Source of the DNA: Candidatus Aenigmatarchaeota archaeon
GTDB lineage: Archaea; Aenigmatarchaeota; Aenigmatarchaeia; QMZP01
Length of the DNA: 64,000 nucleotides
Assembly: GCA_016185435.1 (NCBI GenBank)
Contig: JACPNN010000021.1
Coordinates: 269-64,268 of the forward strand
Direction: 5' to 3'
Part shown: positions 24,041 to 58,714 of the stretch, one piece after another
How the letters are laid out: every line of letters starts with the position of its first letter
Numbering within the stretch: the stretch's first letter is position 1
The notes under the pieces: generated by a model
Told to the model about the DNA's origin: nothing
The model's input: only the letters and a program-made list of their open reading frames with translations
The model's database searches: none
Made by a program: the position numbers and the translations under genes

Positions 24041-24174
24041 GATATGGAATTGATTCGCTTATATAAAAAATTTCCATTTTGCATTAGCCACATTAGTCAG
24101 CTTCTGGAACAGTGCTATGACATCGCACAGGGAAATAGCGCAAGCTTTTATGTAACGGTTTGATAGGGGTTCAT

Positions 24175-26427
24175 ATGAGGCTCCTTATAGTGTCGAACAG
24201 ATTGCCGATCACAGTGCTTAAAAAGAACGGGGATCTGAAGTTTCAAAAAAGTGTTGGAGGGCTTGCATCAGGGCTGAAGGCATTTCTTGATGCCGGCATG
24301 CCCTCTTCAGGTGCCACAGGATACCTGTGGGTCGGCTGGCCAGGAGTATCGGTTGAAGGCAAAGCAAAAGAAAAACTGAAAGACATGCTGGCCAGGCATT
24401 ACGCCTATCCTGTTTTTCTTTCCCAAAAAGAGATGGACAAATTCTACAACGGCTTCTGCAACAAGACTATATGGCCCCTTTTCCACTATTTTCCTTCCTA
24501 TGCAGTGTATGAGGAAGAATATTGGAAACATTACAGGCGGGTGAATGAGGCCTTCTGCGATGCCGTTATGGAAGTCGCAAAGCCGGGCGACCTGATATGG
24601 GTGCATGACTACCATCTCATGCTGCTTCCGAAACTCCTGAGGAAAAGGCTCGATGGGGCCATGATAGGCTTCTTTCTCCATATACCTTTCCCCTCCTTCG
24701 AAATATTCAGGCAGCTCCCGAAAGAATGGAGAAACAGTATGCTAGAGGGCCTGTTAGGGGCAGACCTTATAGGCTTTCATACGCATGACTATACGCAGGA
24801 TTTTCTCAGATGTGTCCTGCGGCTATTGGGACATGAGAACAACATGGGACAGATTTTTACAGAGGAGCGCACCCTGAAAGCCGATACATTTCCGATGGGA
24901 ATAGATTTCCAGAAATTCCACACTATGGCGGCGGATCCCAAAGTACGGAGGCATATGGACAGCCTGAAGAAGAGATTGGAAGATTCAAGGACAATACTCT
25001 CCATCGATAGGCTGGATTACACAAAAGGCGTCATTAACCGCCTGCAGGGATATGAGATCTTTCTCGACAGAAATCCCCAGTGGCACAAAAAGGTTGCAAT
25101 GATACTGATTGTTGTTCCATCGCGTCCGGGGGTTGAGCATTACCAGCAGATGAAGAGGCAGATAGACGAGCTTGTGGGAAGGATCAACGGAAAATTCAGC
25201 AGCATTGGCTGGACGCCCATATTGTACCAGTCAAAGTTCCTGCCGTTCGCTTCTCTTGCGGCCCTCTACAGCATAAGCGACGTTGCCCTGGTAACGCCGC
25301 TGAGGGACGGGATGAACCTGATCGCAAAGGAGTACGTGGCATCCAGGCCAGACATGACAGGAACGCTTGTTCTCAGTTATATGACAGGCGCCGCAAAGGA
25401 ACTAGGTGAGGCTATCCGCGTCAATCCGAATCACAGGGAAGACATTGCCGATGCGATAAAGGAAGCCCTGGAAATGACGCATGAAGAACAGGTCAGAAGA
25501 AACCGGATCATGCAGGACAGGCTGAGGCGCTATGATGTTCACAGATGGGCCGGCGATTTCATTAAGGATCTGCATGCAGTAAAGAAAGTCCAGGAGAAGT
25601 TCAATGCGAGGCTCCTGAATCCCGCCATAAGGGAGCGGTTGATAACGGATTACAGCAAAGCACGCAGGAGGCTGATTCTTCTCGATTACGATGGCACCCT
25701 CGTCCCGTTTGCAGACCATTACCAGAACTCATTGCCAGGCGAGGATGTCAAAGGACTTCTCCGCTTGATTTCAGGGAATCCCAAAACTGATGTTGTTCTG
25801 ATAAGCGGCCGCGACAGGAACACGCTCAAAGAATGGTTCAGCGGCCTTGACATAGGATTTGTTGCAGAGCATGGGATATGGATCAGGGAAAGGGGCAGTG
25901 AATGGAACTTGGCAAAAGCGCTGGCGAATGACTGGAAATCCGGGGTTCTGCCGATACTGGAAACCTTTGTTGACAGGCTCCCGGGATCCTTTGTTGAGGA
26001 GAAGGAGTATTCCATAGTCTTCCATTATAGAAAGGCGGACCCTGAGCTTGGCTCTGTAAGGGCCAAGGATCTCATGGACACGCTGCTGAACTTCACAGCC
26101 AATATGGATGTCCAGACACTGCAGGGGAACAAAGTGATCGAGATCAGGAGTGCCGGGGTCAACAAGGGCACTGCTGCTGGTCATTTCCTTTCAAAAGGCA
26201 GCTATGATTTCATACTGGCGATAGGGGATGACATTACCGATGAAGATCTCTTCCGCATCCTCCCCGAAACGGCCTATTCGATAAGGGTGGGGATAGCGAA
26301 TACTCATGCAAGGTGCAGCCTTTACAGCCAGAAAGATGCCATAGAACTGCTGGATGAAATCGGACAGAAGAGTCAGAAAAACGGAAAACGCTTCCATGAG
26401 CGAGCAGATACATATATTACACCCTAA
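24175..26427 (+). CDS. otsAB: bifunctional trehalose-6-phosphate synthase / trehalose-6-phosphate phosphatase (OtsA-OtsB fusion)
   Basis: N-terminal GT20 region (LLIVSNRLPITV...WVHDYHLMLLP...); C-terminal HAD phosphatase LLDYDGTLVPF...GDDITDEDLF. Confidence 0.7.
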   Translation: MRLLIVSNRLPITVLKKNGDLKFQKSVGGLASGLKAFLDAGMPSSGATGYLWVGWPGVSVEGKAKEKLKDMLARHYAYPVFLSQKEMDKFYNGFCNKTIWPLFHYFPSYAVYEEEYWKHYRRVNEAFCDAVMEVAKPGDLIWVHDYHLMLLPKLLRKRLDGAMIGFFLHIPFPSFEIFRQLPKEWRNSMLEGLLGADLIGFHTHDYTQDFLRCVLRLLGHENNMGQIFTEERTLKADTFPMGIDFQKFHTMAADPKVRRHMDSLKKRLEDSRTILSIDRLDYTKGVINRLQGYEIFLDRNPQWHKKVAMILIVVPSRPGVEHYQQMKRQIDELVGRINGKFSSIGWTPILYQSKFLPFASLAALYSISDVALVTPLRDGMNLIAKEYVASRPDMTGTLVLSYMTGAAKELGEAIRVNPNHREDIADAIKEALEMTHEEQVRRNRIMQDRLRRYDVHRWAGDFIKDLHAVKKVQEKFNARLLNPAIRERLITDYSKARRRLILLDYDGTLVPFADHYQNSLPGEDVKGLLRLISGNPKTDVVLISGRDRNTLKEWFSGLDIGFVAEHGIWIRERGSEWNLAKALANDWKSGVLPILETFVDRLPGSFVEEKEYSIVFHYRKADPELGSVRAKDLMDTLLNFTANMDVQTLQGNKVIEIRSAGVNKGTAAGHFLSKGSYDFILAIGDDITDEDLFRILPETAYSIRVGIANTHARCSLYSQKDAIELLDEIGQKSQKNGKRFHERADTYITP

Positions 26428-29219: not shown

Positions 29220-29297
29220 TCACCAATATTAACACCCTTCCACAATTTCTTTTATGGCGTCAATACTCGATCAATACTTCCTGAACCCCTACGGCCT
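29220..29297 (+). repeat. ~80-bp direct repeat copy 2 (authentic BatA-like gene start)
   Basis: See 27810-27893. Confidence 0.65.
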
Positions 29298-31107
29298 TTT
29301 AGGCCTGCTGGCCCTCATCCCTCTCATAATAATCTATCTCAAGAGGCCCAGGCCGAGGAAGATTGCCTTCCCGTCCATAGAGTTCATCATGGGCGCCAGG
29401 AAGAGGAAGAGCCTCTTTAGCTTCCTGAGCTACTTCATACAGGATTACCTTTTCCTCCTTCAGGTGCTGATATTCATAATATTTGCCGCAGCAATGGCCT
29501 ACCCGTATGTGAGCATGAAGCAGAGCGAAGCAGTATCAAATGCAGTGATTATACTGGACGCCTCGGCAAGCATGCAGACAATCCATAAGGACAATACAGG
29601 AGTTGAAATCGATAAACGGACACGCTTTGAAAGGGCCAAGCAGACAGCCGTACAGAACCTTGCTGATATCAACACAGTCATACTTGCCGCTGATTTTCCT
29701 GAGGCCCTTGTAACTGAAGCTGACAAAGGAACTGCCACAAGGCTGATCCAGGAAGCCAGGCCAAAATCAACCCTGACGAACCTCTATGATGCAATGATAC
29801 TGGGCGATGATTACCTGGAAGGCAAGCAGGGCAAAGTTGTCGTTATAAGCGATTTCCTGCACAATGCCAATGACAGGAGCCTCCTGACAGCAAGGAGCAT
29901 CCTTGAATCCAAAGGCATTGCCGTGGAATTCAGGAGCCTGGCAGGCAACGCCAGCAACGCCGGTATAGTTGACGTGAAGGTTGAAGGAAAGAAAGTGAGA
30001 ATCAAGGTGAAAAATTTCAATCAGAAGCCTCTTGCATCCACAGTGGCATATGGGGAGACATCAAAAACATTCAATATCGACCCGTTAGGCCTGGAAAGCA
30101 TAGAGCTGGACGCCAGGGAAGGCGCATCAGAAATAAGCCTCCTGCCAGAAGATGACTTCATGCCTGACAACAGGGCCTACATAAGCATGCAGCAGAACGC
30201 TTCAGTCAGGCTCCTGCTGATAACAAACAACAGGAGCAGATTCCTTTACACAGCCCTGGAGCTCCTTCCGGGAGTGAAAGTGGATGTCGCTGAGCCGCCG
30301 GTGATACCAAGACTTGACTATGAAATCTTTATCCTGCATAACATAGAGCCAGGCAAGCTTCTGCCCGGCGCCGTGAAGGATATCGCTGAAAAGGTGGGCA
30401 AGGGAGCCGGCGTTGTCATCGCAGCGCACAGGGGAATGGAGAACATAGACTACAGGGAACTGGTGGATTTGCAGGCAAAAAGGGTGAAGAAGCCTCTGCA
30501 GGCAATAAGGAAAGAGTCCAGGCTCACGGAAGGGATGGATTTCGGCCGGGTCGGGGAATATTATGACGTCAGCTTCCCCAACACTACAGAGCTCGCTTAT
30601 GGCAATGACGGCAATCGCTCTGCGCCTCTGATAGCCTTTGCCGCAAAGGGCTCAGGCACAATACTATACTACGGCCTTGATGAGGCATCATCATCATTCC
30701 ATTATGAGCTCCTCTATCCTGTCTTCTGGAAGCGGATGATAGAGCAGATGGCAGGCAAGCTCGATGAGCGGCAGCTGAACATGAAGACAGGCAGCATACT
30801 GTCCCTTGACGGATTGAAGGAGGTTGAATATCCTGACGGTTCAAAAAGCGCCTCAAAAACCCTTGTGCTGGACCAGTCAGGGATATACACTATCAGGCCT
30901 GAGGGGAAAAAGATTGCGGCAAACCTGGCCCAGGAGATGGAGTCGGCAGTAAGCTCAGCCTTTGCTTCAGAAGAGTCAAAAAAGCTTCTGTCTCCAGCAG
31001 CCCAGGAAAGAGAGGCCAAGGTTGAAATGACACATCTTGCCGCTCTGCTCCTGCTCCTGCTCCTTTTCCTTGAATTGTTTATACTGAAATACAGGGGAGA
31101 CGTGTGA
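29254..31107 (+). CDS. BatA-like membrane protein with von Willebrand factor A domain
   Basis: N-terminal aerotolerance-regulator-type TM region (YFLNPYGLLGLLALIPLIIIYL); vWA start VIILDASASMQT; C-terminal TM. Confidence 0.55.
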   Translation: MASILDQYFLNPYGLLGLLALIPLIIIYLKRPRPRKIAFPSIEFIMGARKRKSLFSFLSYFIQDYLFLLQVLIFIIFAAAMAYPYVSMKQSEAVSNAVIILDASASMQTIHKDNTGVEIDKRTRFERAKQTAVQNLADINTVILAADFPEALVTEADKGTATRLIQEARPKSTLTNLYDAMILGDDYLEGKQGKVVVISDFLHNANDRSLLTARSILESKGIAVEFRSLAGNASNAGIVDVKVEGKKVRIKVKNFNQKPLASTVAYGETSKTFNIDPLGLESIELDAREGASEISLLPEDDFMPDNRAYISMQQNASVRLLLITNNRSRFLYTALELLPGVKVDVAEPPVIPRLDYEIFILHNIEPGKLLPGAVKDIAEKVGKGAGVVIAAHRGMENIDYRELVDLQAKRVKKPLQAIRKESRLTEGMDFGRVGEYYDVSFPNTTELAYGNDGNRSAPLIAFAAKGSGTILYYGLDEASSSFHYELLYPVFWKRMIEQMAGKLDERQLNMKTGSILSLDGLKEVEYPDGSKSASKTLVLDQSGIYTIRPEGKKIAANLAQEMESAVSSAFASEESKKLLSPAAQEREAKVEMTHLAALLLLLLLFLELFILKYRGDV

Positions 31108-31129
31108 TGAAAGAATATGGGGATAACAC

Positions 31130-33514
31130 ATGGCAGGCATAGAATTGGTCTCGCCTGAATGGCTTTTATTGGCAGTTCCTTTGCTGGCAATAATCATAGC
31201 CGTATCCAGAAAAAATATTTTCAAATTAAGCGAGAGGCAGGACAGCAGCCTCTTCACCATCATCTTCAGGAGCCTTGCGGTTTTGCTTATAATCGCATCC
31301 CTTTCCCATCCGGTCTATATATCAAAAGGCCTGGCTCAGGTCCCTCCGACAGCAAGGCTCCTGATCGACAGCTCTGATTCAATGAAAATATTTGACACGT
31401 CCTTCATCCCGAAGCTGGAGGAAAGCCTTGCGAAAGAGCTGCCCCTCGATGTCAAAGTGATAGCCAATGGAACAGAATCGAGGATAGGCGATGGCATCAT
31501 GTCCAGCCTTGCAGACCAGTCAGGCCTCCTCCTCATATCCGACGGCCAGGCAACTGATGGCTCAGGCCTTTCAGACGCCGGCCTTCTTGCCTCCAAGCTG
31601 AACGCTTCCATCAGCGCTATCAGGCTCATTCCGGCTGTCAGGGATGCGGGCGTCACTATTACCGCCCCTTCCAAGACAGCCAAAGGCGTGGAGACCCAGC
31701 TCCTGGTCGAGGTCAATGGAATAGAAGGCATCGATCGTCCAACAGGGAAAATAGACGTGGAAATAGACGGCCAGAATGTGAAAAGTTCTCCCTTGACAGA
31801 GAAATCCTTTGTGATTTCAAAGCGATTTGAGGCAGAAGGCAGCCATGTGATCAGGGCAAAGATAACGCCTGATGATGATTTTTTTGAAGCAAACAATGAG
31901 TTCTACAAGACCATCAAGGTTGTAGGGAAGCCAAAGGTGGCATACATAGGCGACAAAAGCAACCCATTGCTTGAGATCCTCGGCCAGCTCTACAGCACTG
32001 ACACATTTGACAATATCCCTTCCAAGGATGAGCTGGACAAGTACCATGCATTGATAATTAATGATATGCCTGCAAAGGGCATCAGGAATATAGACGCCCT
32101 CAAGGATTTCATAGCCGACGGCAACGGCCTCGCGGTTATCGGCGGCTTCAATTCCTATGATTTCGCTGATTACAGGAACTCGGCCTTTGAAGCCCTGCTT
32201 CCCGTCAGGATTGGACAAGGGGCAGAGAAAAGAGGGAGTGCGAATGTCATCCTGCTGGTGGACATATCGGGCAGCACCACAGAGTCGACAGCAAAAGGGG
32301 CAGTGATAGTTGATGTCGAAAAAGCCCTTGCTGTAAATATAGCAGACGTCCTCTCGTCCAGGAATTCTGTAGGATCTGTGGCATTCAATACTGAAAGCTA
32401 TATCGTCTCGGATCTGGAGATCCTGCGGGATTCAAAGGACAGGCTGATCTCAAGGATATCGAGGCTGAAGAATGGAGGAGGAACCTCAATAAGCACAGGG
32501 CTGGGAGGGGCGTACAGGATGCTGAAAGGAAGGCAGGGCAGCAACAATATTATATTGATTTCCGACGGGGTTTACAACTTCGATCTGGACAAGGAAAAGA
32601 GCCTGCAGATCGCCAGACTTCTGAAAGATGAAGGCATAAAGCTTTATACCATAGGCGTCGGTGCAAACCACAAGAAATCCTTTCTCTCAGAGCTGGCATC
32701 TCTGACTAATGGCATTTACCTCTCAGCGGACGAATCCAATAAGCTGTCTGTCGTTTTTGGAGAGAAAGGGGAGCTTCCAAGAGGCAGCACATTCGAGCTG
32801 CTTGTGATAGACTCTACCCATTTCATCACCCAGGGCCTTCACCCAAGGCCTTTGCTCGATGCCTACAATAAGGTCATCCCAAAGGAAGGGGCCAGGCTGC
32901 TCGTCACTACAGGCAATGGCGACCCGGCCCTTACCGTATGGAGGTACGGGCTTGGAAGAGTAGCCTCTCTTAATGCCTTCACCTCTGACAATAACCTGGG
33001 CCAGCTCCTGTCGAAGGATAACTCCAAGCTGATCGCAAGGATGCTGAACTGGAACATAGGGGATCCTGAAAGGAAGCTGGATGAATCGGTCGATGCAAGC
33101 GATGCCAGGATAGGCGAAACAGTCACAATAAAGGTCAGGACAAAGGGCTACCCAAAATCAAACCTGACCTTTTTCAAGGCAGGGGAGGACACATATCTGG
33201 CCAGAACCCGCCATTACCATGCAGGCATATACTCGGTAGAGTCGGCCAAATATGCTGTCAATTATGAGAAGGAATATGAAAACCTTGGCATGAGCAAACA
33301 GCTTGAGACCATAATTCAATTGAGCGGCGGAAGATTATTTAACCAGAGCGACACAAATAGCATACTTGAACTGCTGAGATCAGGGGCAAAAAAGGAGCAG
33401 ATAGTTGAGAATAACATAAGCTGGCTCTTCCTGCTCCTTGGGATGCTGGCATACCTCGCCGAGGTGGCCTTAAGGAGGCTTGACCTATGGAAAAATATTT
33501 TCAGAAAAGCCTGA
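31130..33514 (+). CDS. BatB-like large vWA-domain membrane protein
   Basis: N-terminal LVSPEWLLLAVPLLAIIIAV TM; MIDAS-type vWA motif VILLVDISGSTTEST; C-terminal TM. Confidence 0.55.
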   Translation: MAGIELVSPEWLLLAVPLLAIIIAVSRKNIFKLSERQDSSLFTIIFRSLAVLLIIASLSHPVYISKGLAQVPPTARLLIDSSDSMKIFDTSFIPKLEESLAKELPLDVKVIANGTESRIGDGIMSSLADQSGLLLISDGQATDGSGLSDAGLLASKLNASISAIRLIPAVRDAGVTITAPSKTAKGVETQLLVEVNGIEGIDRPTGKIDVEIDGQNVKSSPLTEKSFVISKRFEAEGSHVIRAKITPDDDFFEANNEFYKTIKVVGKPKVAYIGDKSNPLLEILGQLYSTDTFDNIPSKDELDKYHALIINDMPAKGIRNIDALKDFIADGNGLAVIGGFNSYDFADYRNSAFEALLPVRIGQGAEKRGSANVILLVDISGSTTESTAKGAVIVDVEKALAVNIADVLSSRNSVGSVAFNTESYIVSDLEILRDSKDRLISRISRLKNGGGTSISTGLGGAYRMLKGRQGSNNIILISDGVYNFDLDKEKSLQIARLLKDEGIKLYTIGVGANHKKSFLSELASLTNGIYLSADESNKLSVVFGEKGELPRGSTFELLVIDSTHFITQGLHPRPLLDAYNKVIPKEGARLLVTTGNGDPALTVWRYGLGRVASLNAFTSDNNLGQLLSKDNSKLIARMLNWNIGDPERKLDESVDASDARIGETVTIKVRTKGYPKSNLTFFKAGEDTYLARTRHYHAGIYSVESAKYAVNYEKEYENLGMSKQLETIIQLSGGRLFNQSDTNSILELLRSGAKKEQIVENNISWLFLLLGMLAYLAEVALRRLDLWKNIFRKA

Positions 33515-35483: not shown

Positions 35484-35796
35484 TATTGAAGCATAGATGG
35501 GGCGGCTTTGTGACAAAACTAGTTATGATCTCTATGAAAAAACTAATCATATCTCTCCTTCTATTTATCATTTGTTTGTCTACCAATAAATACCTCCAGG
35601 ACCAAATATATAGCAGAGCTGTTGTGCAAAAACACGATCCAGTACATGCTTTTCAGCATGGATATTCAATCGAAGAAATATTGCCGCAATAAAGGGAGTC
35701 TACTTTTCTTCTGGATGGGTATTTGAGTTTTGTCGCAAGCCCTAGATGGGGCAGAACCTTTAAATATCCAGAATATAATATTTCAATAGAGATATC

Positions 35797-36075
35797 ATGG
35801 AAGAGCCATCGGTCTATCCGCACTATCAGGACAGGCCGATAATCCCTTCTCACATGTCTCAGAGGGAGATGGACTCTTTGCGGATGGATCTGTGGAAGGT
35901 CAAAGAAATACTGGAAGGCGGTTATGACTGCTCTGTCAGCAGAAGAAAGCCAAACATCATTGAGAAGTGCATCAGGAAAAAGGGCAAGGAGATCAGGGTT
36001 GTTGTCGCCCTGATTGAGTGGGAGAATAAAAGCTTTTGGAGGTTAATCCATGTCGGCAAAACAGGTAAACATTGA
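35797..36075 (+). CDS. DUF4258-like putative toxin
   Basis: SHMSQREM...KGKEIRVVVALIEWENKSFWRLIHV resembles the DUF4258 pattern (N-terminal HxxxR(M), C-terminal HVVVA...(I)ITV). Confidence 0.4.
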   Translation: MEEPSVYPHYQDRPIIPSHMSQREMDSLRMDLWKVKEILEGGYDCSVSRRKPNIIEKCIRKKGKEIRVVVALIEWENKSFWRLIHVGKTGKH

Positions 36076-36385
36076 CAAATGGGAGAAAATACCCTGCGAG
36101 TGCGGGAAGATGGCAGATAAGGCCAGCTTAACCTACAGGAATTATCAGGTGAGAGGCTGGAAATGCCATAAATGCGGCAAAAGTTACATACATCCTGCCG
36201 ATTCGCTAAAGATAAGCAAGCTCGAGAAGCTTTCTGGCATGAAGGTCAAGATAGGCGTTGTCGGCCAGAGCCTCGTGCTTCGGATACCCAAGAGCATGGC
36301 AGAGTTATATGATCTGGAGAAGGGGGAACTTGTGGAGCTTGTGCCTGAGGACCTGAAGAGGCTGGAAATAAAAATCAAGGGCTGA
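36050..36385 (+). CDS. Zn-ribbon plus AbrB/SpoVT-like swapped-hairpin DNA-binding protein (putative antitoxin/regulator)
   Basis: CECGK...CHKCGK zinc ribbon, then KIGVVGQSLVLRIPKSMAEL AbrB/MazE-like motif; overlaps upstream ORF. Confidence 0.45.
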   Translation: MSAKQVNIDKWEKIPCECGKMADKASLTYRNYQVRGWKCHKCGKSYIHPADSLKISKLEKLSGMKVKIGVVGQSLVLRIPKSMAELYDLEKGELVELVPEDLKRLEIKIKG

Positions 36386-36408
36386 CTTGGCCAAACTAGC
36401 CAAATTCT

Positions 36409-36443
36409 GAGCTGGTGAAGGCGTACAGTTTGAAGATAAGGGA
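36409..36443 (+). repeat. 35-bp perfect direct repeat copy 2
   Basis: See 35445-35479. Confidence 0.85.
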
Positions 36444-36448
36444 GTAGT

Positions 36449-36616
36449 ATGAGTAAAAGAAGACGTCTGAATTTGTTTCATATTGCCGGCAAGTTAACCG
36501 AAGAGCAGGCGGCAGAACTCAGAAAGCATATCTTTGATAGAAGGAAAGAGATGAGGAAAAGATTGCAGAAAACACGAAAAGCATTGAGTTTCTTCAGTGC
36601 GAAAAAGCATTTATAG
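36449..36616 (+). CDS. 55-aa highly basic small ORF (not in track)
   Basis: MSKRRRLNLFHIAGKLTEEQAAELRKHIFDRRKEMRKRLQKTRKALSFFSAKKHL; starts 6 nt after repeat copy 2; may be a relic or a small nucleic-acid-binding protein. Confidence 0.25.
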   Translation: MSKRRRLNLFHIAGKLTEEQAAELRKHIFDRRKEMRKRLQKTRKALSFFSAKKHL

Positions 36617-36640
36617 CCTTACAGAACAATTACTTACATT

Positions 36641-39475
36641 ATGTCCCTGCTAGCAAAGAAGGATGACTTCAGCCTGCATTCGATTGACGAGTCTGAACTG
36701 AAGATGGCCCTGTCCAGGCTCCAGCATCTGAAAAAGGAGATCTCAAAGGTGGTCATAGGCCAGAATGAGGTCCTGGATCAGCTGCTTATTTCTTTCCTTG
36801 CCAATGGCCACGCCCTGATGGAAAGCTACCCAGGGATGGGGAAAACCCTGATGGTGAAGACCATGGCTGCAGTGACAAGCCTCAGGTTCAGTAGGGTGCA
36901 GTCAACGCCTGACCTTCTCCCTGCCGATATCATAGGAACTTACATAATACAGGACACAGACGGCAGGAAGACCTTCACATTCAAAAAGGGCCCCATATTC
37001 GCGAACATACTGCTTGCCGACGAAATCAACAGGGCGACTCCCAAAACCCAGTCAGCCTTCCTTGAGGCCATGCAGGAGAAGCAGGTGACTGTGGGAAATG
37101 AGACCATGAAGCTTGAGGAGCCTTTTTTTGTGCTTGCAACGCAGAATCCGATAGACATGGAGGGCAGCCTGAGTCCTGAGCAGAAGGTTTTCATCAATGG
37201 CGGGATAAAGACTGGAGAAGAACTTATAGAAGTCGCAAAGAAAATGCCTTTTATCGAATCGAAAAGTTGCAGGATTTACGGTCTCGGAGACTCATACACT
37301 TATTCCTTGGACAGTAAAGGCAGAATTGAAAAGAGAAAATGCGGCCTTTATGTTTTGCCTTATGAGGGCGAGGTGGTTTCGATAAGAACAAGGACAGGCA
37401 GATTGATAAAGGTAACAAAAAACCACCCATTCCTTGTTTCAGAAAATGGACACGTAAAGTGGAAAAGGGCGGAAGAGCTAACGCTTGGCGATTTCCTTAT
37501 TTCTCCTGCTAAACTGCCTCCAGGGGATGAAAGGGAAGAGCTGATGACGCATGGCGAGACCATCGAAGAGTTAAAATCGAGATATAATGTGATTACTCAT
37601 GAGGATTTGCTGGAATTGAGACATATTTCCAAAGGATTTAGCGATTTCTCTTCCCTTGATGGGGCAGGTTTTGACAAGCTCAGAATATCCCTCAGTTTGG
37701 GTGTCAAACAGTTGGCTGCAAATCTTCTGCTAGACAAAAAAGGATACTGGAAGCTTGTTAGGTATTTGAGGGGAAATAGGCGAAATGAAGAATTAAAGAG
37801 GCTGCTGGCAGGGTTCTTCTTGGAGAGCAAGCCTATGCTCAGCGAGGAAACGGATTTCATCGAAAGCTACAGGATAACAAAAATAAGGAGGTTCAGGGCT
37901 GATCCCGATATCGCATTTTTCATCGCATTTCTGCTTTCTGATGGGACTGTTTCCGATGATTATGTCGCTGCCTATCAGAAAAATTATTCCGCATCACTTG
38001 ACAGGTTTATCTCTATTGCAAAAAGGATAGGTCTGGCGGTCGGAATATGTGAGAAAAAGGGTGGGAGAACAGCCAAAATACTTTCCAAGCCTTTTGCAGA
38101 TTACATGAAATTGAGGTTCGGAATTGGGAGACCTTCTTGGCTTCTCTCATTTCCAGAAAAGTTGAGAAAGGAGTTCCTGAGGACATTCATTGCCATGGAA
38201 TCCCATCTTGATTTGAAAAGGAGGAGGATTCTGTTCTCACAAGCCTCAGAGGAAAAAGCGAATCTGATTTCCTATATGCTTCTGAAGGAAGGCATCATTT
38301 CTTGGGCGAGATTCGAGAAAAAAGGGAAGGGCATCTTTAGAATCAAAATACAAGGCAGCGATTTTGCAAGGTACTTGGAGAATATAGGCTGGCTGGAAAA
38401 AACATTCGATTTTCACAAAGAGGGGATTGTAGGAAGCATATCAACCCACAGGACCGTCCCTGTGAGCAAGAAGATGCTGACAGATGTAGTCAAGCTGCTT
38501 GGTTTGGATTCCTTCAGGTTTCCAGGAAGGAAAGAATTTGCCCAAAGAGGCTGGTACAATGCCTACAGAAATGTCAAGGGGGGGAGGGAATACATGTCTG
38601 AAGCTCTGTTCAGGCAGATGATCTCTGATCTGAAAGGGGAAATAGAATACAGAAAATCCATTGACATAAATTCCCTTGTGCGAAAAGAGCCGAGGAAGGC
38701 AGCCGCACTTTGCGGCCTGCCAATGACAGAGATAGCAAAAAATACGGTTTTCAAAAAGCATGAGGTATGGAATCTGTATTCTGGGCAGCAGCATGAGTCG
38801 CATGAGGCCATTTCAGAACATATAGAGATGGTATTTTCCCAAAGGCTCGTTTCTGCCGAAAAGCTCATATCGTATTTTGAAGGCCTCTCCACAGACTTCA
38901 TATTTTACGACAGGATAAGGAGCATGAGATTCGAAAATTATGAAGGCCCTGTCTTTGGCCTGATGGTGCCCGGGACGCACAACTACGTTGCAGGCTTCGG
39001 AGGCTGCGGTATAAACCACAACACATATCCTCTTCCTGAGGCCCAGGTGGACAGGTTTCTGGTCAAGATACTTCTTGACTACCCCAGCAGGGATGAGGAA
39101 AAAATAATAGCGGAGATGTATTCTGCTGTGGAGGGAATTGCAGCTTTGAACCGGGTGATGGACCGCAATGACGTAATGAAGCTGCAGAAGCTCACGAGGA
39201 TGGTTCCTATTTCCACTGAAGTGAGGGACTATGCCCTTGATATAGTCCAGAAAACAAGGAAGCACGAGCACATAGAGTTCGGGGCTTCTCCCAGGGCCTC
39301 GATAGGCCTCATAGTTGCTGCAAAGGCATACGCCTTGCTGAACCAAAGGACATTTGTCAGCAAGAAGGACATACAGTATGTGGCCCTGCCGGTATTGCGG
39401 CACAGGATTATTCTGAATTTCCAGGCCGAGAAAGAGGGTTTGAAGGCGGATGACGTGGTGAAGAAACTTTTGTAA
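36641..39475 (+). CDS. MoxR-family AAA+ ATPase interrupted by a large intein
   Basis: Exteins: Walker A SYPGMGKT, Walker B ILLADEINRA, sensor-1 VLATQNPIDMEG, then ...TYPLPEAQVDRF...; extein total ~325 aa, typical of MoxR; the 944-aa ORF is explained by a 619-aa insertion. Confidence 0.7.
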   Translation: MSLLAKKDDFSLHSIDESELKMALSRLQHLKKEISKVVIGQNEVLDQLLISFLANGHALMESYPGMGKTLMVKTMAAVTSLRFSRVQSTPDLLPADIIGTYIIQDTDGRKTFTFKKGPIFANILLADEINRATPKTQSAFLEAMQEKQVTVGNETMKLEEPFFVLATQNPIDMEGSLSPEQKVFINGGIKTGEELIEVAKKMPFIESKSCRIYGLGDSYTYSLDSKGRIEKRKCGLYVLPYEGEVVSIRTRTGRLIKVTKNHPFLVSENGHVKWKRAEELTLGDFLISPAKLPPGDEREELMTHGETIEELKSRYNVITHEDLLELRHISKGFSDFSSLDGAGFDKLRISLSLGVKQLAANLLLDKKGYWKLVRYLRGNRRNEELKRLLAGFFLESKPMLSEETDFIESYRITKIRRFRADPDIAFFIAFLLSDGTVSDDYVAAYQKNYSASLDRFISIAKRIGLAVGICEKKGGRTAKILSKPFADYMKLRFGIGRPSWLLSFPEKLRKEFLRTFIAMESHLDLKRRRILFSQASEEKANLISYMLLKEGIISWARFEKKGKGIFRIKIQGSDFARYLENIGWLEKTFDFHKEGIVGSISTHRTVPVSKKMLTDVVKLLGLDSFRFPGRKEFAQRGWYNAYRNVKGGREYMSEALFRQMISDLKGEIEYRKSIDINSLVRKEPRKAAALCGLPMTEIAKNTVFKKHEVWNLYSGQQHESHEAISEHIEMVFSQRLVSAEKLISYFEGLSTDFIFYDRIRSMRFENYEGPVFGLMVPGTHNYVAGFGGCGINHNTYPLPEAQVDRFLVKILLDYPSRDEEKIIAEMYSAVEGIAALNRVMDRNDVMKLQKLTRMVPISTEVRDYALDIVQKTRKHEHIEFGASPRASIGLIVAAKAYALLNQRTFVSKKDIQYVALPVLRHRIILNFQAEKEGLKADDVVKKLL
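37166..39022 (+). other. intein (619 aa) with LAGLIDADG-like homing endonuclease region, inserted after MEG of the MoxR sensor-1 region
   Basis: Begins SLSPEQKV (block A-like, Ser1) and ends GGCGINHN followed by Thr; internal FIAFLLSDGTVSD (LAGLIDADG-like) and FLRTFIAMESHLD. Confidence 0.6.
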
Positions 39476-39626: not shown

Positions 39627-40481
39627 ATGCCGATTGATCCATCCTTCCTGAAAGAGCTTGACAAGTTCAGGATAGCCATAAAAAGGAGGGTGCACAGCAA
39701 CCTGAAGGGCTCGAGGGAATCGACTGCCACAGGGGAAGGCCTTGTCTTCGAGGACTATGTGCCCTACACGCCTGGCGATGACATCAGGCACATAGACTGG
39801 AACGTGTTCGCAAGGACTGAAAAGACCTTCATAAAGAGGATGGAAGAGGAGAAGAATTCCATTGTGCATATAGTTCTCGATGCAAGTTCGAGCATGAACT
39901 TCGGGAACAATATAAAAAAATTCGAGTATGGGGCCATGATAGGCCTGGGTTTTGCCTACATGGCTGCAAAGGCCAATGAGAAATTCGAATTCACAGTCTT
40001 TTCCAACAAGCTTGATTTCATCAGGGCCAAGGCAGGCTCAAGGGGCATCATGGGCCTTGTCGAGCAGCTGAACAAGGCTGATATCGGGGGAAAAAGCAAG
40101 CTCAAGGAAAGCCTGCTGGAATACAAGAAGAACATACACTCCAGGTCAATAGTCGTGATAATTTCAGACTTCCTTTATGACATAAATGATATCAGGGAAG
40201 TCTTGTTGAGATACAAGCGAAGCCAGGCATATCTGGTCCAAATTCTGGACCCGGTGGAAAAAAACCTGAAGCTTTCGGGAGACGTCATACTTAAGGATCT
40301 GGAAACAGACACAAGCATGCAGACCTACATCTCGGCCAGGACAAGAGAGCAGTACAGGCAGAGGCTGCAGGAGCATATAATGCGGATAGATGACATATGC
40401 TCGCATCTGGGGGCGAAATTCATTTCGATGACGACCGACCAGCCTGTGTTTGATTCTTTCTACAGGATACTGTTCAATTAG
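39627..40481 (+). CDS. DUF58-family protein (MoxR partner, vWA-like)
   Basis: VPYTPGDDIRHIDWNVFARTEK...IVLDASSSM, the DUF58 signature downstream of MoxR. Confidence 0.65.
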   Translation: MPIDPSFLKELDKFRIAIKRRVHSNLKGSRESTATGEGLVFEDYVPYTPGDDIRHIDWNVFARTEKTFIKRMEEEKNSIVHIVLDASSSMNFGNNIKKFEYGAMIGLGFAYMAAKANEKFEFTVFSNKLDFIRAKAGSRGIMGLVEQLNKADIGGKSKLKESLLEYKKNIHSRSIVVIISDFLYDINDIREVLLRYKRSQAYLVQILDPVEKNLKLSGDVILKDLETDTSMQTYISARTREQYRQRLQEHIMRIDDICSHLGAKFISMTTDQPVFDSFYRILFN

Positions 40482-56092: not shown

Positions 56093-58714
56093 ACGAAGAA
56101 AATAGAAGACAATAGCTTAGAAGGAGTGATTGACAAAACAATGGATGAAATGCTTGAAACTTTCCCCCAGAAGCTGAGGGAAGATGTTCTCCAGTACATG
56201 GACGAAAAAGCCCTGCCTTTCGACAAGAGAGAGAGGATTGTGCAAAAGGTCTTCCAGCTCTACAGGCAAAGCCTGTACAACCCTGAGGAAGCCATAGGCA
56301 TTGTTACTGCCCAGAGCCTGTCCGAACCCGCCACCCAGATGTCACTGGACTGCTCTGAGAAGGTCATAGTGAAACGCAACAAGGCGATTAAAATAATCCC
56401 TATCGGCTCTTTCATAGATCTTATTATGGAGAATGAGGGGAGGAAAATGATTAATGGATGGGAGGTATGTGATGTGTTAGGTCTAGAGCTATATGTTCCG
56501 AGCATTACGCAGAATGAAAAAATAGAATGGAGACAGATAAAGGAGGTAAGCAGGCATCCTGCTCCTGAAACGCTGCTGGAAATAAGAACAAAGTCAGGCA
56601 GGAAAATTGTGGCCACAGATTCCCATTCTTTTTTCGTAAGGAAAAATAACAGGATAATTGCAGTTTCCGGGGCAGAGCTGGAGGCGGGTGAGAGGATACC
56701 TGCATTATCATTCCTCCCTGAAAACTGCATCCAGCACTTAGAGACAAAACAGATAGTCGGGGACGGGAAATATGCCAAAAAGCGTTTGGCAGAGACGCTT
56801 CAGCTGAATGGCAGGTTGGGGTGGCTTTTCGGGGCTTATCTGGCAGAAGGAAATGCGGCCAAATTCTATGTCTCCTTCTCGAACACAGACAAGAGGTTTT
56901 TGTCCCAGATAAGGGATATTGCGAAATCGTTTGGCTTCACGTTCAATGAGTATGACAACAACAGAGGATTTGCCTTGGGCCATGGCATCAGGATAAACTC
57001 GAAGCAGCTTTCCATGCTGATGGAAAGGGCATGCGGGGTAGGCGCAGCGAATAAGAAAGTGCCTGATTTTGCCTTCAGCGCAAACGCTGATTTTGTTTCA
57101 GGTATCCTGAGGGGATATTTCGATGGTGATGGAAGCGTGTCTGTTGAGAGAAAGGTAATAAGGGCGTCATCAAAATCATCGGAGCTTATTGATGGTATAG
57201 CTCTCCTCTTGACAAGGTTCGGGATATTTGCCAGAAAATCAAGGGACAAGCAATACACGCTTTCGATACCATACAAGCATGCAAAGGCATTCAGCAAGAT
57301 AGGCTTTTCAGTTGGTTACAAGGGTGAGCAGCTTGATATGCTGTGCAATCTTTTTGAAAAGGATAAAGACAGATATGAGGACTTCATTGACATGGTAGGC
57401 GGGTTTGACGATATAATGGTCAGTCTTTCTAGGAAGCTGAACCTGCCTGCAAGATATGTAAACAGCTGCACAAAAAGGCAGAAGATTGGAAGGACAGCGC
57501 TTTTGAGGCACATTGAAAGGTTCAAAAGGGCTTCCATGGAAAAATCCATAGATATTGAAAAGGAGCTGGCCGTATTAAAAAGAATGCACGAATCTGATGT
57601 TGTGTGGGATGAGATAGTTTCTATTGGCAGGATGAGGCCTTCCAGCAGCTATGTTTATGACTTCAGCGTGCCTGGAACAGAGAGCTTTACAACATTTGAC
57701 GGCATAGTCACGCACAATACCATGCGTACCTACCATTTCGCCGGCACAGCAGGCATACAGGTTACATTAGGTTTGCCCAGAATGATAGAGATATTCGACG
57801 CGAGAAGAGAGCCTACCACCCCGACAATGATTGTCTACGTGAACAGGGGATTGCAGGACAAGGAGAAGGTGAAGAAGATAGCCGAGAACATCAAGGAAGT
57901 GAAGGTGAAGAACATAACCATAAGCGTCTCAATGGACCTGACAGAATCCATAATACGGTGCAGGATGAACGCAAAGAAGCTCAAAGAGCTTGAAATCGAT
58001 CCCAAAAAACTCCCCAGCATGATGAAGATAAGGGGGAACAAGGTGGAGGTTGAGGGGGACGACCTTATCATAAGGACAAAGAAAAAGGATCTGAGGAATC
58101 TCCACAAGATCAAATTCGCTTTGCTTGACAGCAGGATAAAGGGAATAAAAGGCATAACACAGGCGATAGTCCTCAAGGAAAGGAACGAGTGGGTGATAAA
58201 CACACTCGGGAGCAATCTAAAGAAAGCCATACTGATAGAAGGCGTGGATACAGACAGGACGACAAGCAACAACATCTTTGAGGTCTGCGAGGTGCTGGGA
58301 ATAGAGGCTGCAAGGAATGCGATAATCCATCAGGCAGCCTATGTCATGGAGGAGCAGGGGCTGAACGCTGACATGAGATACCTGATGCTGCTTGCTGACA
58401 TGATGACGGTGACGGGCCAGATAAGATCCATAGGGAGGTACGGGATTTCAGGCGGGAAGAGCAGCGTGCTCGTAAGAGCCAGCTTCGAGGAGACAAAGAA
58501 GCATCTTGTAGGGGCGAGCGTTAAGGGAGAGAAGGATGAGTTCAGGGGAACCATAGAGAACGTGATGGTGAACCAGCTTGCTCCCATAGGCACGGGCGCC
58601 TTCAACCTTGTCGGGGAGATACCGTCTATTGGAGAAGAGAAGAAAGAGGGAGACAGGAAGAAAGAAAAGGAGATAAAGGTCAAGGAAGCCAAGAAAAAGG
58701 GGAAGGAAGAATAA
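56090..58714 (+). CDS. rpoA2: RNA polymerase subunit A'' interrupted by an intein
   Basis: Exteins ...AQSLSEPATQM | TMRTYHFAGTAGIQ... reconstitute the conserved EPxTQMTxRTFHxAG motif; extein total ~415 aa. Track ORF start (TTG 56015) is probably too far upstream; ATG at 56090 sits in the duplicated junction. Confidence 0.8.
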   Translation: MTKKIEDNSLEGVIDKTMDEMLETFPQKLREDVLQYMDEKALPFDKRERIVQKVFQLYRQSLYNPEEAIGIVTAQSLSEPATQMSLDCSEKVIVKRNKAIKIIPIGSFIDLIMENEGRKMINGWEVCDVLGLELYVPSITQNEKIEWRQIKEVSRHPAPETLLEIRTKSGRKIVATDSHSFFVRKNNRIIAVSGAELEAGERIPALSFLPENCIQHLETKQIVGDGKYAKKRLAETLQLNGRLGWLFGAYLAEGNAAKFYVSFSNTDKRFLSQIRDIAKSFGFTFNEYDNNRGFALGHGIRINSKQLSMLMERACGVGAANKKVPDFAFSANADFVSGILRGYFDGDGSVSVERKVIRASSKSSELIDGIALLLTRFGIFARKSRDKQYTLSIPYKHAKAFSKIGFSVGYKGEQLDMLCNLFEKDKDRYEDFIDMVGGFDDIMVSLSRKLNLPARYVNSCTKRQKIGRTALLRHIERFKRASMEKSIDIEKELAVLKRMHESDVVWDEIVSIGRMRPSSSYVYDFSVPGTESFTTFDGIVTHNTMRTYHFAGTAGIQVTLGLPRMIEIFDARREPTTPTMIVYVNRGLQDKEKVKKIAENIKEVKVKNITISVSMDLTESIIRCRMNAKKLKELEIDPKKLPSMMKIRGNKVEVEGDDLIIRTKKKDLRNLHKIKFALLDSRIKGIKGITQAIVLKERNEWVINTLGSNLKKAILIEGVDTDRTTSNNIFEVCEVLGIEAARNAIIHQAAYVMEEQGLNADMRYLMLLADMMTVTGQIRSIGRYGISGGKSSVLVRASFEETKKHLVGASVKGEKDEFRGTIENVMVNQLAPIGTGAFNLVGEIPSIGEEKKEGDRKKEKEIKVKEAKKKGKEE
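56342..57718 (+). other. intein (~459 aa) with LAGLIDADG homing endonuclease in RpoA''
   Basis: Begins SLDCSEKV (Ser1) directly after conserved QM; ends VTHN followed by Thr; LAGLIDADG motifs LFGAYLAEGNA and LRGYFDGDGSV. Confidence 0.7.

Follow-up and report, generated by a model that had tools for sequence, protein, structure and literature searches.

A probable class-1 intein with a LAGLIDADG homing endonuclease in the AAA+ core of an archaeal MoxR ATPase

Results

The window analysed here is a stretch of 64,000 nucleotides of archaeal DNA. On its plus strand, a single open reading frame of 2.8 kb (36641..39475; 944 codons and a stop, without interruption) encodes a MoxR AAA+ ATPase precursor of 944 aa that contains an intein. 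Pfam finds five domains on the precursor, AAA_3, AAA_lid_2, bpMoxR, Intein_splicing and LAGLIDADG_3. The flanks of the insert carry AAA_3 (185.5 bits, spanning precursor aa 57-177) and AAA_lid_2 (81.5 bits). An identical protein, P0001, is found at NCBI, where it stems from the metagenome-assembled genome of a Candidatus Aenigmarchaeota archaeon, a member of the DPANN archaea, and is labelled 'AAA family ATPase'. This annotation conceals both the intein and the true MoxR product of 325 aa.

The N-extein (36641..37165, plus strand, aa 1-175) is delimited by the AAA_3 match and by gap-free alignments with PDB 2r44 and with intein-free homologues. A motif search locates in it YPGMGKT (36827..36847), LLADEINR (37010..37033) and the strand VLATQN (37130..37147), which we take from general AAA+ knowledge to be Walker A, Walker B and sensor 1, respectively. 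The C-extein (39023..39472, plus strand, aa 795-944) begins with the Thr+1 nucleophile and includes AAA_lid_2. Its first residues, TYPLPEAQVDRF (39023..39058), hold a putative Arg finger in DRF, and a sensor-2-like GASPRAS follows at 39281..39301. The host protein hence combines the AAA_3 core and AAA_lid_2 of the MoxR family with Walker A and B, the sensor-1 Asn and the Arg in DRF. DUF58 (VWA-like) proteins are the usual partners of MoxR ATPases, and such partner genes are present nearby: a DUF58 gene (39627..40481, plus strand; Pfam DUF58 133.7 bits) starts 151 nt downstream of the MoxR gene, and BatA/VWA genes lie upstream at 29254..33514. A scan of the MoxR gene for sigma-70 promoters and terminators, using a model that is bacterial, returned no more sites than are found in shuffled sequence.

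Translation of 37166..39022 (plus strand) yields 619 aa in frame (precursor aa 176-794), with SLSPEQKV as the first residues and GGCGINHN as the last. The insert is preceded by ...ATQNPIDMEG and followed by TYPLPEAQVDRF. An earlier note on this DNA had proposed a 619-aa intein at this place in a MoxR AAA+ ATPase, and its boundaries are right to the nucleotide; the start with SLSPEQKV, the terminal His-Asn and the Thr at +1 that it reported can all be seen in the translation and the flanks. Pfam Intein_splicing matches the insert with 63.1 bits (cut-off 35.8) up to the final intein residue, and NCBIfam TIGR01445 intein_Nterm matches intein aa 2-91 with 44.5 bits (cut-off 24.5). Judged by these sequence profiles and that of the endonuclease, the matches are far above chance.

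Each of the intein blocks A, B, F and G, against which the earlier note had proposed to align the insert, is present. The N-terminal Hint lobe (37166..37516), covered by TIGR01445 and all-beta in the AF2 model, holds block A, SLSPEQKVFI (37166..37195), and block B, VTKNHPFLV (37412..37438, aa 258-266), in which the TxxH motif is TKNH with Thr259 and His262. The C-terminal Hint lobe (38891..39022), covered by Intein_splicing, holds block F, VFGLMVPGTHNYVAG (38951..38995, aa 771-785), and block G, GGCGINHN (38999..39022, aa 787-794), with His793 and Asn794. The features of a class-1 intein are therefore found in Ser176 at position 1, in T259-K-N-H262, in H793-N794 followed by T795, in the match to the Hint fold and profile, and in the in-frame insertion at a conserved host site that is uninterrupted in homologues without the intein. 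The Asp that class-1 inteins frequently have at block F position 4, which is not a defining feature of the class, is replaced by Gly773 in VFGL. We treat this Gly as a peculiarity of the family, where 108 of 109 members have it, and not as a ground for exclusion from class 1. The block F His (aa 780) also varies in the family (Q in 59 members, H in 37), and given these two positions, the splicing kinetics of the MoxR intein may be unusual. Class-3 chemistry was considered as well and is ruled out, with a nucleophile at position 1 and Gly, not Cys, at block F position 4.

The insertion point lies 6 residues past the sensor-1 Asn and 11 residues ahead of the putative Arg finger. When the DNA is rejoined at 37165/39023, the site reads GCAACGCAGAATCCGATAGACATGGAGGGC directly followed by ACATATCCTCTTCCTGAGGCCCAGGTGGAC, and the peptide across the splice junction is ...NPIDMEGTYPLPEAQVDR. 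The spliced product of 325 aa matches PDB 2r44 with an E-value of 1e-78 over residues 16-324 and shows no gap at the junction. Alignment to eight intein-free homologues is likewise gap-free, the identity to intein-free archaeal MoxR proteins is 57-70%, and four of them have exactly the same junction peptide, IDMEGTYPLPEAQVDRF. The expectation that the extein halves rejoin seamlessly at sensor 1 is thus borne out, the exact place being just past the sensor-1 strand, and splicing in silico gives an extein that resembles uninterrupted MoxR homologues with up to 70% identity. The insert is not a regular part of MoxR proteins: intein-free homologues are abundant, and the top 120 extein matches are all 309-346 aa long and all without an intein domain. 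A natural empty MoxR site is found at locus L041, around nt 1652, and the empty site of the closest intein-free orthologue, which has a syntenic DUF7502-MoxR context, is identical to the rejoined window site in 72 of 90 nt.

These data bear on the idea that the insert is a permanent domain that does not splice, or that the gene is a dead pseudogene, with the 944-aa protein as the final product. The exchange of the block F Asp for Gly would fit such a loss of splicing. Against it, the nucleophiles, TxxH and HN are all intact and conserved in 108 homologues, the 2.8-kb reading frame has no interruption, and the ATPase core would be left split where 120 intein-free homologues and 2r44 run on without a break. 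The identity of 57-70% between the extein and intein-free proteins points to selection on a functional, and hence spliced, MoxR. We regard a non-splicing product as very improbable.

The LAGLIDADG homing endonuclease core (37901..38386, aa ~421-582) is supported by Pfam LAGLIDADG_3 (35.5 bits, cut-off 22.5), by the AF2 model and by Foldseek. Two motifs are present; the earlier note had already pointed to LAGLIDADG-like motifs in the insert. The first is IAFFIAFLLSDG (37910..37945; IAFFIAFLLSD434-G) and the second FLRTFIAMES (38174..38203; FLRTFIAME520-S). In the AF2 model of the precursor (pLDDT 91.5) the helices 422-434 and 506-520 terminate at the acidic residues Asp434 and Glu520, and the order alpha-beta-beta-alpha-beta-beta-alpha occurs twice. 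Foldseek matches this part to I-DmoI (E about 1e-6, TMt 0.64-0.72). Two helices with acidic ends, a profile match and a fold match are what characterizes a double-motif LAGLIDADG enzyme. The top Foldseek matches of the model are the TliVMA intein 7qss (E 6e-21, TMt 0.78), PI-TkoII 2cw7, PI-PfuI 1dq3 and the PhoVMA intein, while MoxR 2r44 (TMt 0.86) covers both extein halves.

The large size of the intein is explained by two helical accessory domains. Accessory domain 1 (37517..37900, aa ~293-420) lies between the N-terminal Hint lobe and the endonuclease and contains the HTH-like stretch LRISLSLGVKQLAANL (37679..37726). Modelled in isolation it consists of six helices and a beta-hairpin (pLDDT 92.8), and Foldseek gives a weak likeness to XRE/Cro-type HTH proteins (E about 1, 55 residues aligned, 2.5-3.6 A). 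A subfamily of about 520 aa is without this domain and has gaps at intein aa 139-240. Accessory domain 2 (38387..38890, aa ~583-750), which follows the endonuclease and precedes the C-terminal Hint lobe, is made up of AF2 helices at 610-749 and contains the HTH-like stretch RKAAALCGLPMTEIAKNT (38693..38746). Homologues have sub-threshold Pfam matches at both positions, to HTH_3 and HTH_31 at the first and to HTH_23, HTH_24 and Sigma70_r4 at the second. A Pfam search with both accessory segments alone gave no match at E-values up to 10, and searching the PDB with a profile of the accessory-domain-1 alignment found nothing significant (best E 0.17). The accessory domains are probably of HTH type; this assignment is tentative because the matches are sub-threshold and the Foldseek match of accessory domain 1 has an E-value of about 1 or higher. 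Both domains may serve in DNA binding.

We found the same intein allele in over 100 protein clusters and in 40 GTDB species-level genomes from Woese-, Nano- and Nanohaloarchaeota and Halobacteria. We have aligned 109 family sequences; 108 homologous precursors could be aligned across the junction, and all 108 share the insertion site. Ser1, Asn794 and Thr+1 are each found in 108 of 108 and His793 in 107. The block B His262 is invariant (109/109), and the first block B position is Thr or Ser in 100 of 109. In the endonuclease, position 434 is acidic in 105 members and position 520 is Glu in 106. The hosts of the allele include a Halorussus scaffold and the complete chromosome of Salinirubellus litoreus, and homologues carry the automatic JGI label 'MoxR-like ATPase/intein/homing endonuclease'. 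A faulty assembly or binning that joined a MoxR gene with an unrelated intein would be conceivable for a metagenome-assembled genome, but the same architecture and junctions recur in the >100 independent clusters and 40 genomes. With the complete chromosome among these, such an artefact is ruled out, and we give it practically no weight.

The allele is patchily distributed. No intein is found in the three nearest extein relatives, and on a neighbor-joining tree of the exteins the intein must have been gained or lost at least 13 times. Some haloarchaeal pairs have inteins that are closer to each other than the exteins are (e.g. 55% versus 44%), indicating transfer between divergent MoxR genes. 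The GC3 of the intein is 0.49, compared with 0.62-0.67 in the exteins; weak codon selection in a selfish element could account for this as an alternative to recent transfer.

It might be that the intein is competent in splicing while its endonuclease is now inactive in this lineage, so that it persists as a fixed, vertically inherited passenger late in the homing cycle. The identities to the nearest intein-bearing homologues drop together in extein and intein (60%/54% for P0002, 59%/51% for P0003), which fits co-descent. The LAGLIDADG_3 score of 35.5 bits is modest, and PhoVMA provides a precedent for an endonuclease that looks intact and yet is inactive (PMC8966425). Nevertheless, Asp434 and Glu520 are both present and kept in about 96% of the family, no mini-intein derivative is found among the 108 homologues (the shortest has 452 aa), and the patchy spread, together with inteins that are closer than their exteins in some pairs, speaks for continuing mobility in the family. 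An inactive endonuclease is therefore rather unlikely in our view, if a possibility to be reckoned with.

Discussion

The preceding section gives what was observed: the anatomy, motifs and fold of the insert, its exact place in MoxR, an extein that rejoins without a seam, a patchy spread and conserved catalytic residues. Very likely, in our view, the AAA+ core of MoxR is interrupted in frame by a canonical class-1 intein, which carries a homing endonuclease of the double-motif LAGLIDADG type. Protein splicing, endonuclease activity and DNA binding are what we infer for it. Based on established intein chemistry, the 944-aa precursor would be translated and undergo an N-O acyl shift at Ser176; Thr795 would then attack the resulting ester. 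Cyclisation of Asn794, helped by His793, would free the 619-aa intein, and an O-N shift would yield the 325-aa MoxR with the native ...NPIDMEG-TYPLPEAQ... sequence. Only the spliced product is expected to form the ATPase active site and it would act with the adjoining DUF58/VWA proteins. Once free, the intein probably cleaves MoxR alleles that lack it, at the conserved site coding for ATQNPI(D/E)xEG-TYPLPEAQ, whereupon repair would copy the intein into the cleaved allele. The HTH-like accessory domains probably widen the DNA recognition.

Because the intein sits between sensor 1 and the Arg finger, the unspliced precursor is presumably not an active ATPase. It has thus to be asked whether the intein now serves the host as a conditional switch, responding to redox state, temperature or salt, that gates the MoxR-DUF58/VWA chaperone system. 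The idea of a 'panic button' for ATPase inteins exists in the literature (PMC4760082), and two non-catalytic cysteines, Cys234 and Cys789, are each kept in 102 of 109 family members even though Ser and Thr serve as the nucleophiles. These cysteines do not co-vary, and sequences that lose one retain the other, which speaks against a disulfide switch formed by this pair. Furthermore, the closest orthologues do without the intein, and a retained endonuclease with a patchy distribution is what a purely selfish element predicts. Co-option as a switch appears improbable to us. In a broader form, the formally undescribed allele, widespread in DPANN archaea and Halobacteria and moving between divergent MoxR genes, could mark a distinct subfamily in which conditional splicing gates the MoxR-VWA chaperone system; we attach only slight credence to this. 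Candidate marks of a subfamily are the all-oxygen nucleophiles Ser1 and Thr+1, the block F Gly, the conserved non-catalytic cysteines and the two HTH-like domains.

Returning to the canonical homing intein, its host deserves attention. Archaeal intein hosts described so far are mostly proteins of replication, repair, transcription or nucleotide metabolism. The earlier note had called a MoxR host unusual, and our literature search found no paper that describes a MoxR intein allele or pairs an intein with a MoxR host. MoxR is not among the hosts in the halobacterial intein survey PMC4071816, nor in the main text of PMC4760082. In the genomes, on the contrary, the host is not rare, given the number of clusters and species that carry the allele. 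The finding leaves the understanding of inteins unchanged; what it adds is a chaperone-type host, the AAA+ ATPase MoxR, for large homing inteins. The populous and patchy allele could be used to trace gene flow within the DPANN archaea and from one hypersaline lineage to another. Endonuclease-bearing inteins have been proposed to gain or lose DNA-recognition domains as modules, and the optional accessory domain offers a natural case of this.

The best structural matches of the MoxR intein (E 6e-21 to 8e-15) are TliVMA/PhoVMA (7qss, 7qst), PI-TkoII (2cw7) and PI-PfuI (1dq3). They are also its best sequence matches among solved structures, yet with an identity of only 14-17%. All share the order of Hint domain, LAGLIDADG endonuclease, helical ACD and C-terminal Hint lobe, and the VMA inteins likewise sit in an NTPase core motif. 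The ACDs of TliVMA and PI-TkoII are HTH-like, and accessory domain 2 of the MoxR intein takes the same position as the ACD of TliVMA/PhoVMA (PMC8966425). There are distinct differences. The hosts of the VMA and PI inteins are V-ATPase or DNA polymerase instead of MoxR, and their position 1 is Cys instead of Ser. Between Hint and endonuclease the VMA inteins have a loop of 28-32 residues (PMC8966425), whereas the MoxR intein has a helical domain of about 100 aa; among the compared VMA and PI inteins, only PI-TkoII has a comparable extra domain.

The inteins of MCM/Cdc21 and of the RFC small subunit likewise interrupt AAA+ ATPase domains at conserved motifs. They reside in proteins of replication, at sites described for the P-loop, Walker B and the pre-sensor-1 region, unlike the MoxR intein with its chaperone-type host and its site between sensor 1 and the Arg finger. 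Inteins are concentrated in ATP-binding proteins (about 70% of them, PMC4760082), and the insertion of the MoxR intein in an ATPase motif fits this bias.

The window harbors a second intein, that of RpoA'' (56342..57718, plus strand; 459 aa, SLDCSEKV...GIVTHN followed by T), which is the known rpolA allele (NCBIfam PRK14898). It is also of class 1, with Ser1, HN, Thr+1 and a LAGLIDADG endonuclease, and its GC3 is likewise below that of its host gene. The earlier note had suggested that the two are related elements, a view that the alignments do not support. BLASTP gives 37 bits and 29% identity, confined to 99 aa of the N-terminal Hint lobe, which is generic Hint similarity; against the MoxR-intein profile the RpoA'' intein scores 51 bits in three fragments, and it has no accessory domain 1. 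It is no closer to the MoxR intein than inteins in general. Outside MoxR, the closest relatives are large inteins that interrupt Lhr helicases or the P-loop of archaeal aIF2-gamma (P0249, P0250, P0254, P0257, P0264), which reach 193-295 bits against the same profile and E-values of 3e-42 to 1e-22 in a library search. They share 26-29% identity over nearly all 619 aa, accessory regions included, as well as the terminal HN, the Thr+1 and a site in a P-loop NTPase motif. They differ in the host and in the site, GHVDHGK-T in the Walker A/G1 motif, and they combine Cys1 with an Asp as the fourth residue of block F, in contrast to the Ser1 and Gly of the MoxR family.

Results

The MoxR gene of the window is a single uninterrupted ORF of 944 codons (36641..39475, +), and its translation contains an insert of 619 aa (37166..39022, +) that begins with SLSPEQKV, ends with GGCGINHN and is flanked by ATQNPIDMEG on the N side and by TYPLPEAQVDRF on the C side. 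An earlier note had called this insert an intein from the sequence alone; its coordinates, its length, the first Ser, the last His-Asn and the Thr at position +1 are all correct. Pfam places AAA_3 at precursor aa 57-177 (185 bits) and AAA_lid_2 at aa 871-942 (81 bits), with Intein_splicing (63 bits for the isolated insert, against a cut-off of 35.8) and LAGLIDADG_3 (35.5 bits, against 22.5) between them. The NCBIfam model intein_Nterm TIGR01445 scores 44.5 bits against a cut-off of 24.5, and partial matches fall on the intein portions of the models for intein-containing IF-2, RFC, DnaB, RpoA'' and V-ATPase. The motifs on which the earlier note had made its assignment depend, block B (VTKNHPFLV), block F (VFGLMVPGTHNYVAG) and block G (GGCGINHN), are all found in the insert.

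Excision of the insert in silico yields a 325-aa protein (aa 1-175 joined to aa 795-944, the exteins) that matches the MoxR-family crystal structure 2r44 end to end with a gap-free junction (E 1e-78). Against intein-free archaeal MoxR proteins the spliced extein shows 57-70% identity, and 4 of 8 such proteins aligned share the junction peptide IDMEGTYPLPEAQVDRF exactly. The insert is not a domain common to all homologues, since the 120 proteins that best match the spliced extein in the database are all 309-346 aa long and none has an intein domain. By analogy with AAA+ ATPases in general, we take the insertion to follow the sensor-1 Asn (VLATQN) by six residues and to precede the Arg of DRF by eleven. 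A modelled beta-strand at aa 163-168 supports this placement, and before splicing the precursor should accordingly lack ATPase activity.

AlphaFold2, supplied with 109 homologues, modelled the precursor with a mean pLDDT of 91.5. Leading Foldseek matches in the PDB include the TliVMA intein 7qss (E 6e-21, TMt 0.78), PI-TkoII 2cw7, PI-PfuI 1dq3, the PhoVMA intein 7qst and MoxR 2r44, the last covering both extein halves (TMt 0.86); I-DmoI matches the endonuclease core. By its secondary structure the modelled insert consists of an all-beta Hint N-lobe (aa 176-~292), a first helical domain (aa ~293-420), an endonuclease of two alpha-beta-beta-alpha-beta-beta-alpha repeats in which Asp434 and Glu520 close the respective first helices, a second helical domain (aa ~583-750) and the Hint C-lobe (aa 751-794). 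The insert is a true, canonical intein of class 1 that carries a LAGLIDADG homing endonuclease together with two accessory domains, and we infer that it splices and cleaves DNA.

A search with the precursor returned an identical NCBI protein, annotated 'AAA family ATPase', from a MAG of Candidatus Aenigmarchaeota archaeon, and more than 100 clusters of MoxR proteins of 700-975 aa with intein domains from Woesearchaeota, Nanoarchaeota, Nanohalobium, Halorientalis salina and other archaea. Several of these proteins already carry the JGI label 'MoxR-like ATPase/intein/homing endonuclease'. Across 109 aligned MoxR-intein proteins, with junction columns counted over the sequences covering them, the intein site is identical in every precursor that covers the junction. 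Gly-1, Ser1 and Leu2 are each present in 108/108, the block B His in 109/109, the C-terminal His in 107/108, and Asn and Thr+1 each in 108/108; the LAGLIDADG acidic residues are kept in 105/109 and 106/109. The block F His varies across the family. Block F position 4, Gly773 (38957..38959), is Gly in 108 of the 109 MoxR inteins, whereas many class-1 inteins and the related aIF2-gamma inteins have Asp there. Two non-catalytic Hint cysteines, Cys234 (37340..37342) and Cys789 (39005..39007), are each conserved in 102/109 despite Ser and Thr being the splicing nucleophiles; co-variation of the two among MoxR inteins was looked for and is absent.

Scanning one genome per GTDB species with the block G pattern found 40 loci with the MoxR intein, a lower bound because a single peptide pattern was used. 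Salinirubellus litoreus, on its complete chromosome, and Halorussus sp. AFM4 are among the carriers, and a MoxR extein adjoins the intein wherever the contig reaches the flank. Locus L021 (JACQKJ010000027.1, under the label Candidatus Komeilibacteria bacterium) comes from a CPR bacterial bin; its contig of 5.3 kb holds an archaeal-type MoxR intein and a C-extein 48% identical to that of the window, and is probably archaeal DNA that was binned wrongly. Several bins labelled 'uncultured Methanosarcinales' look DPANN-like at the MoxR-intein locus. At a nanohaloarchaeal locus (L030) the best N-extein match (nt 1901-2377) does not adjoin the intein and lies ~1.6 kb upstream of it, which suggests a second, intein-free MoxR copy beside the intein-bearing one.

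A neighbour-joining tree that combines 104 spliced exteins with 120 intein-free proteins requires at least 13 changes in intein presence, and the three nearest relatives of the window extein on it are intein-free; sampling favoured the query, which makes this result qualitative. The nearest intein-free orthologue has the same DUF7502-MoxR context, and its empty site agrees with the rejoined window site at 72 of 90 nt, with mismatches mostly at third codon positions. GC3 is 0.49 in the MoxR intein against 0.62-0.67 in its exteins; the RpoA'' intein of the window shows a like offset (0.51 against 0.62-0.66). In several hypersaline/haloarchaeal MoxR pairs (database proteins P0066/P0065/P0070 against P0094/P0096/P0100, alignment A1; loci L006 and L039) the inteins are 50-57% alike and the exteins 44-47% (e.g. 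55-57% against 44%), while closely related pairs show the reverse (extein 81%, intein 63%). The pairs with the more similar inteins suggest that the intein has moved between divergent or paralogous MoxR genes.

The MoxR gene has its normal neighbours: a DUF58 gene follows it after 151 nt, and two large genes, BatA/VWA/DUF7408 and VWA/GATase1-like (29254..33514, +), precede the MoxR-DUF58 pair by ~3 kb. A fused trehalose-6-phosphate synthase/phosphatase gene (Glyco_transf_20 + Trehalose_PPase) lies at 24160..26427 (+). DUF7502 and MoxR are immediate neighbours in the closest intein-free orthologue locus (L041/L042), whereas in the window ~1.15 kb (35484..36640, +) separates them. This segment holds two small overlapping ORFs, one of 92 aa without a family (35797..36075, +) and one of 111 aa (36050..36385, +) with a Cys-rich N-terminus and a SpoVT/AbrB-MazE-like match below threshold (23.4 bits, cut-off 24.7), and could be a regulatory or toxin-antitoxin-like cassette that was inserted here.

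Discussion

The RpoA'' intein (56342..57718, +; 459 aa, SLDCSEKV...GIVTHN / TMRTYHFAG, with a LAGLIDADG domain) is the known rpolA allele of the NCBIfam PRK14898 type. It had been proposed as a related element of the MoxR intein, and the two do have Ser1, HN and Thr+1 in common. Kinship beyond the superfamily level is unsupported, because BLASTP aligns only 99 aa of the N-terminal Hint lobe (29% identity) and the MoxR-intein profile gives the RpoA'' intein 51 bits in three fragments, compared with 193-295 bits for inteins in aIF2-gamma and Lhr helicases. Used as query in an exhaustive HMMER search over 1.84 billion representatives, the MoxR intein retrieved MoxR inteins first and then full-length relatives at 26-29% identity, which Pfam identifies as inteins in aIF2-gamma and Lhr helicases. 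These are, by sequence, the nearest non-MoxR relatives. The aIF2-gamma inteins sit in the P-loop (GHVDHGK / C...HN / T); the archaeal examples P0249, P0250, P0254 and P0255 are ~450-635 aa long.

A MoxR host had been considered unusual. This holds for published intein lists: our literature search found no paper that names MoxR as an intein host, and a survey of 118 halobacterial genomes lists 24 intein alleles in 13 genes, rpolA among them and MoxR not (PMC4071816). It does not hold for the sequence data, with their clusters and loci, and the allele is populous yet apparently undescribed. According to Novikova et al., ATP-binding proteins host ~70% of bacterial and archaeal inteins, among them MCM and RFC, which carry inteins in their AAA+ domains (PMC4760082); on that account, a MoxR host interrupted at an ATPase motif fits the known pattern.

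Three length classes can be distinguished among homologous MoxR inteins (~520, 590 and 620-637 aa), and the short class is without intein residues 139-240, the first helical domain. Modelled by itself this domain reaches a pLDDT of 92.8, and Foldseek found no significant structural neighbour for the isolated model; the weak matches are mostly XRE/Cro-type HTH folds (~55 residues, 2.5-3.6 A, E ~1). Some homologues carry the JGI label 'XRE-family HTH', and Pfam HTH matches occur in homologues at both helical domains, all sub-threshold. We tentatively attribute the large size to two DNA-recognition accessory domains, one of them optional in this family. In VMA inteins the link from Hint to endonuclease is a loop of only 28-32 residues, and an accessory domain, HTH-like in TliVMA and PI-TkoII, occupies the same position as the second helical domain of the MoxR intein (PMC8966425).
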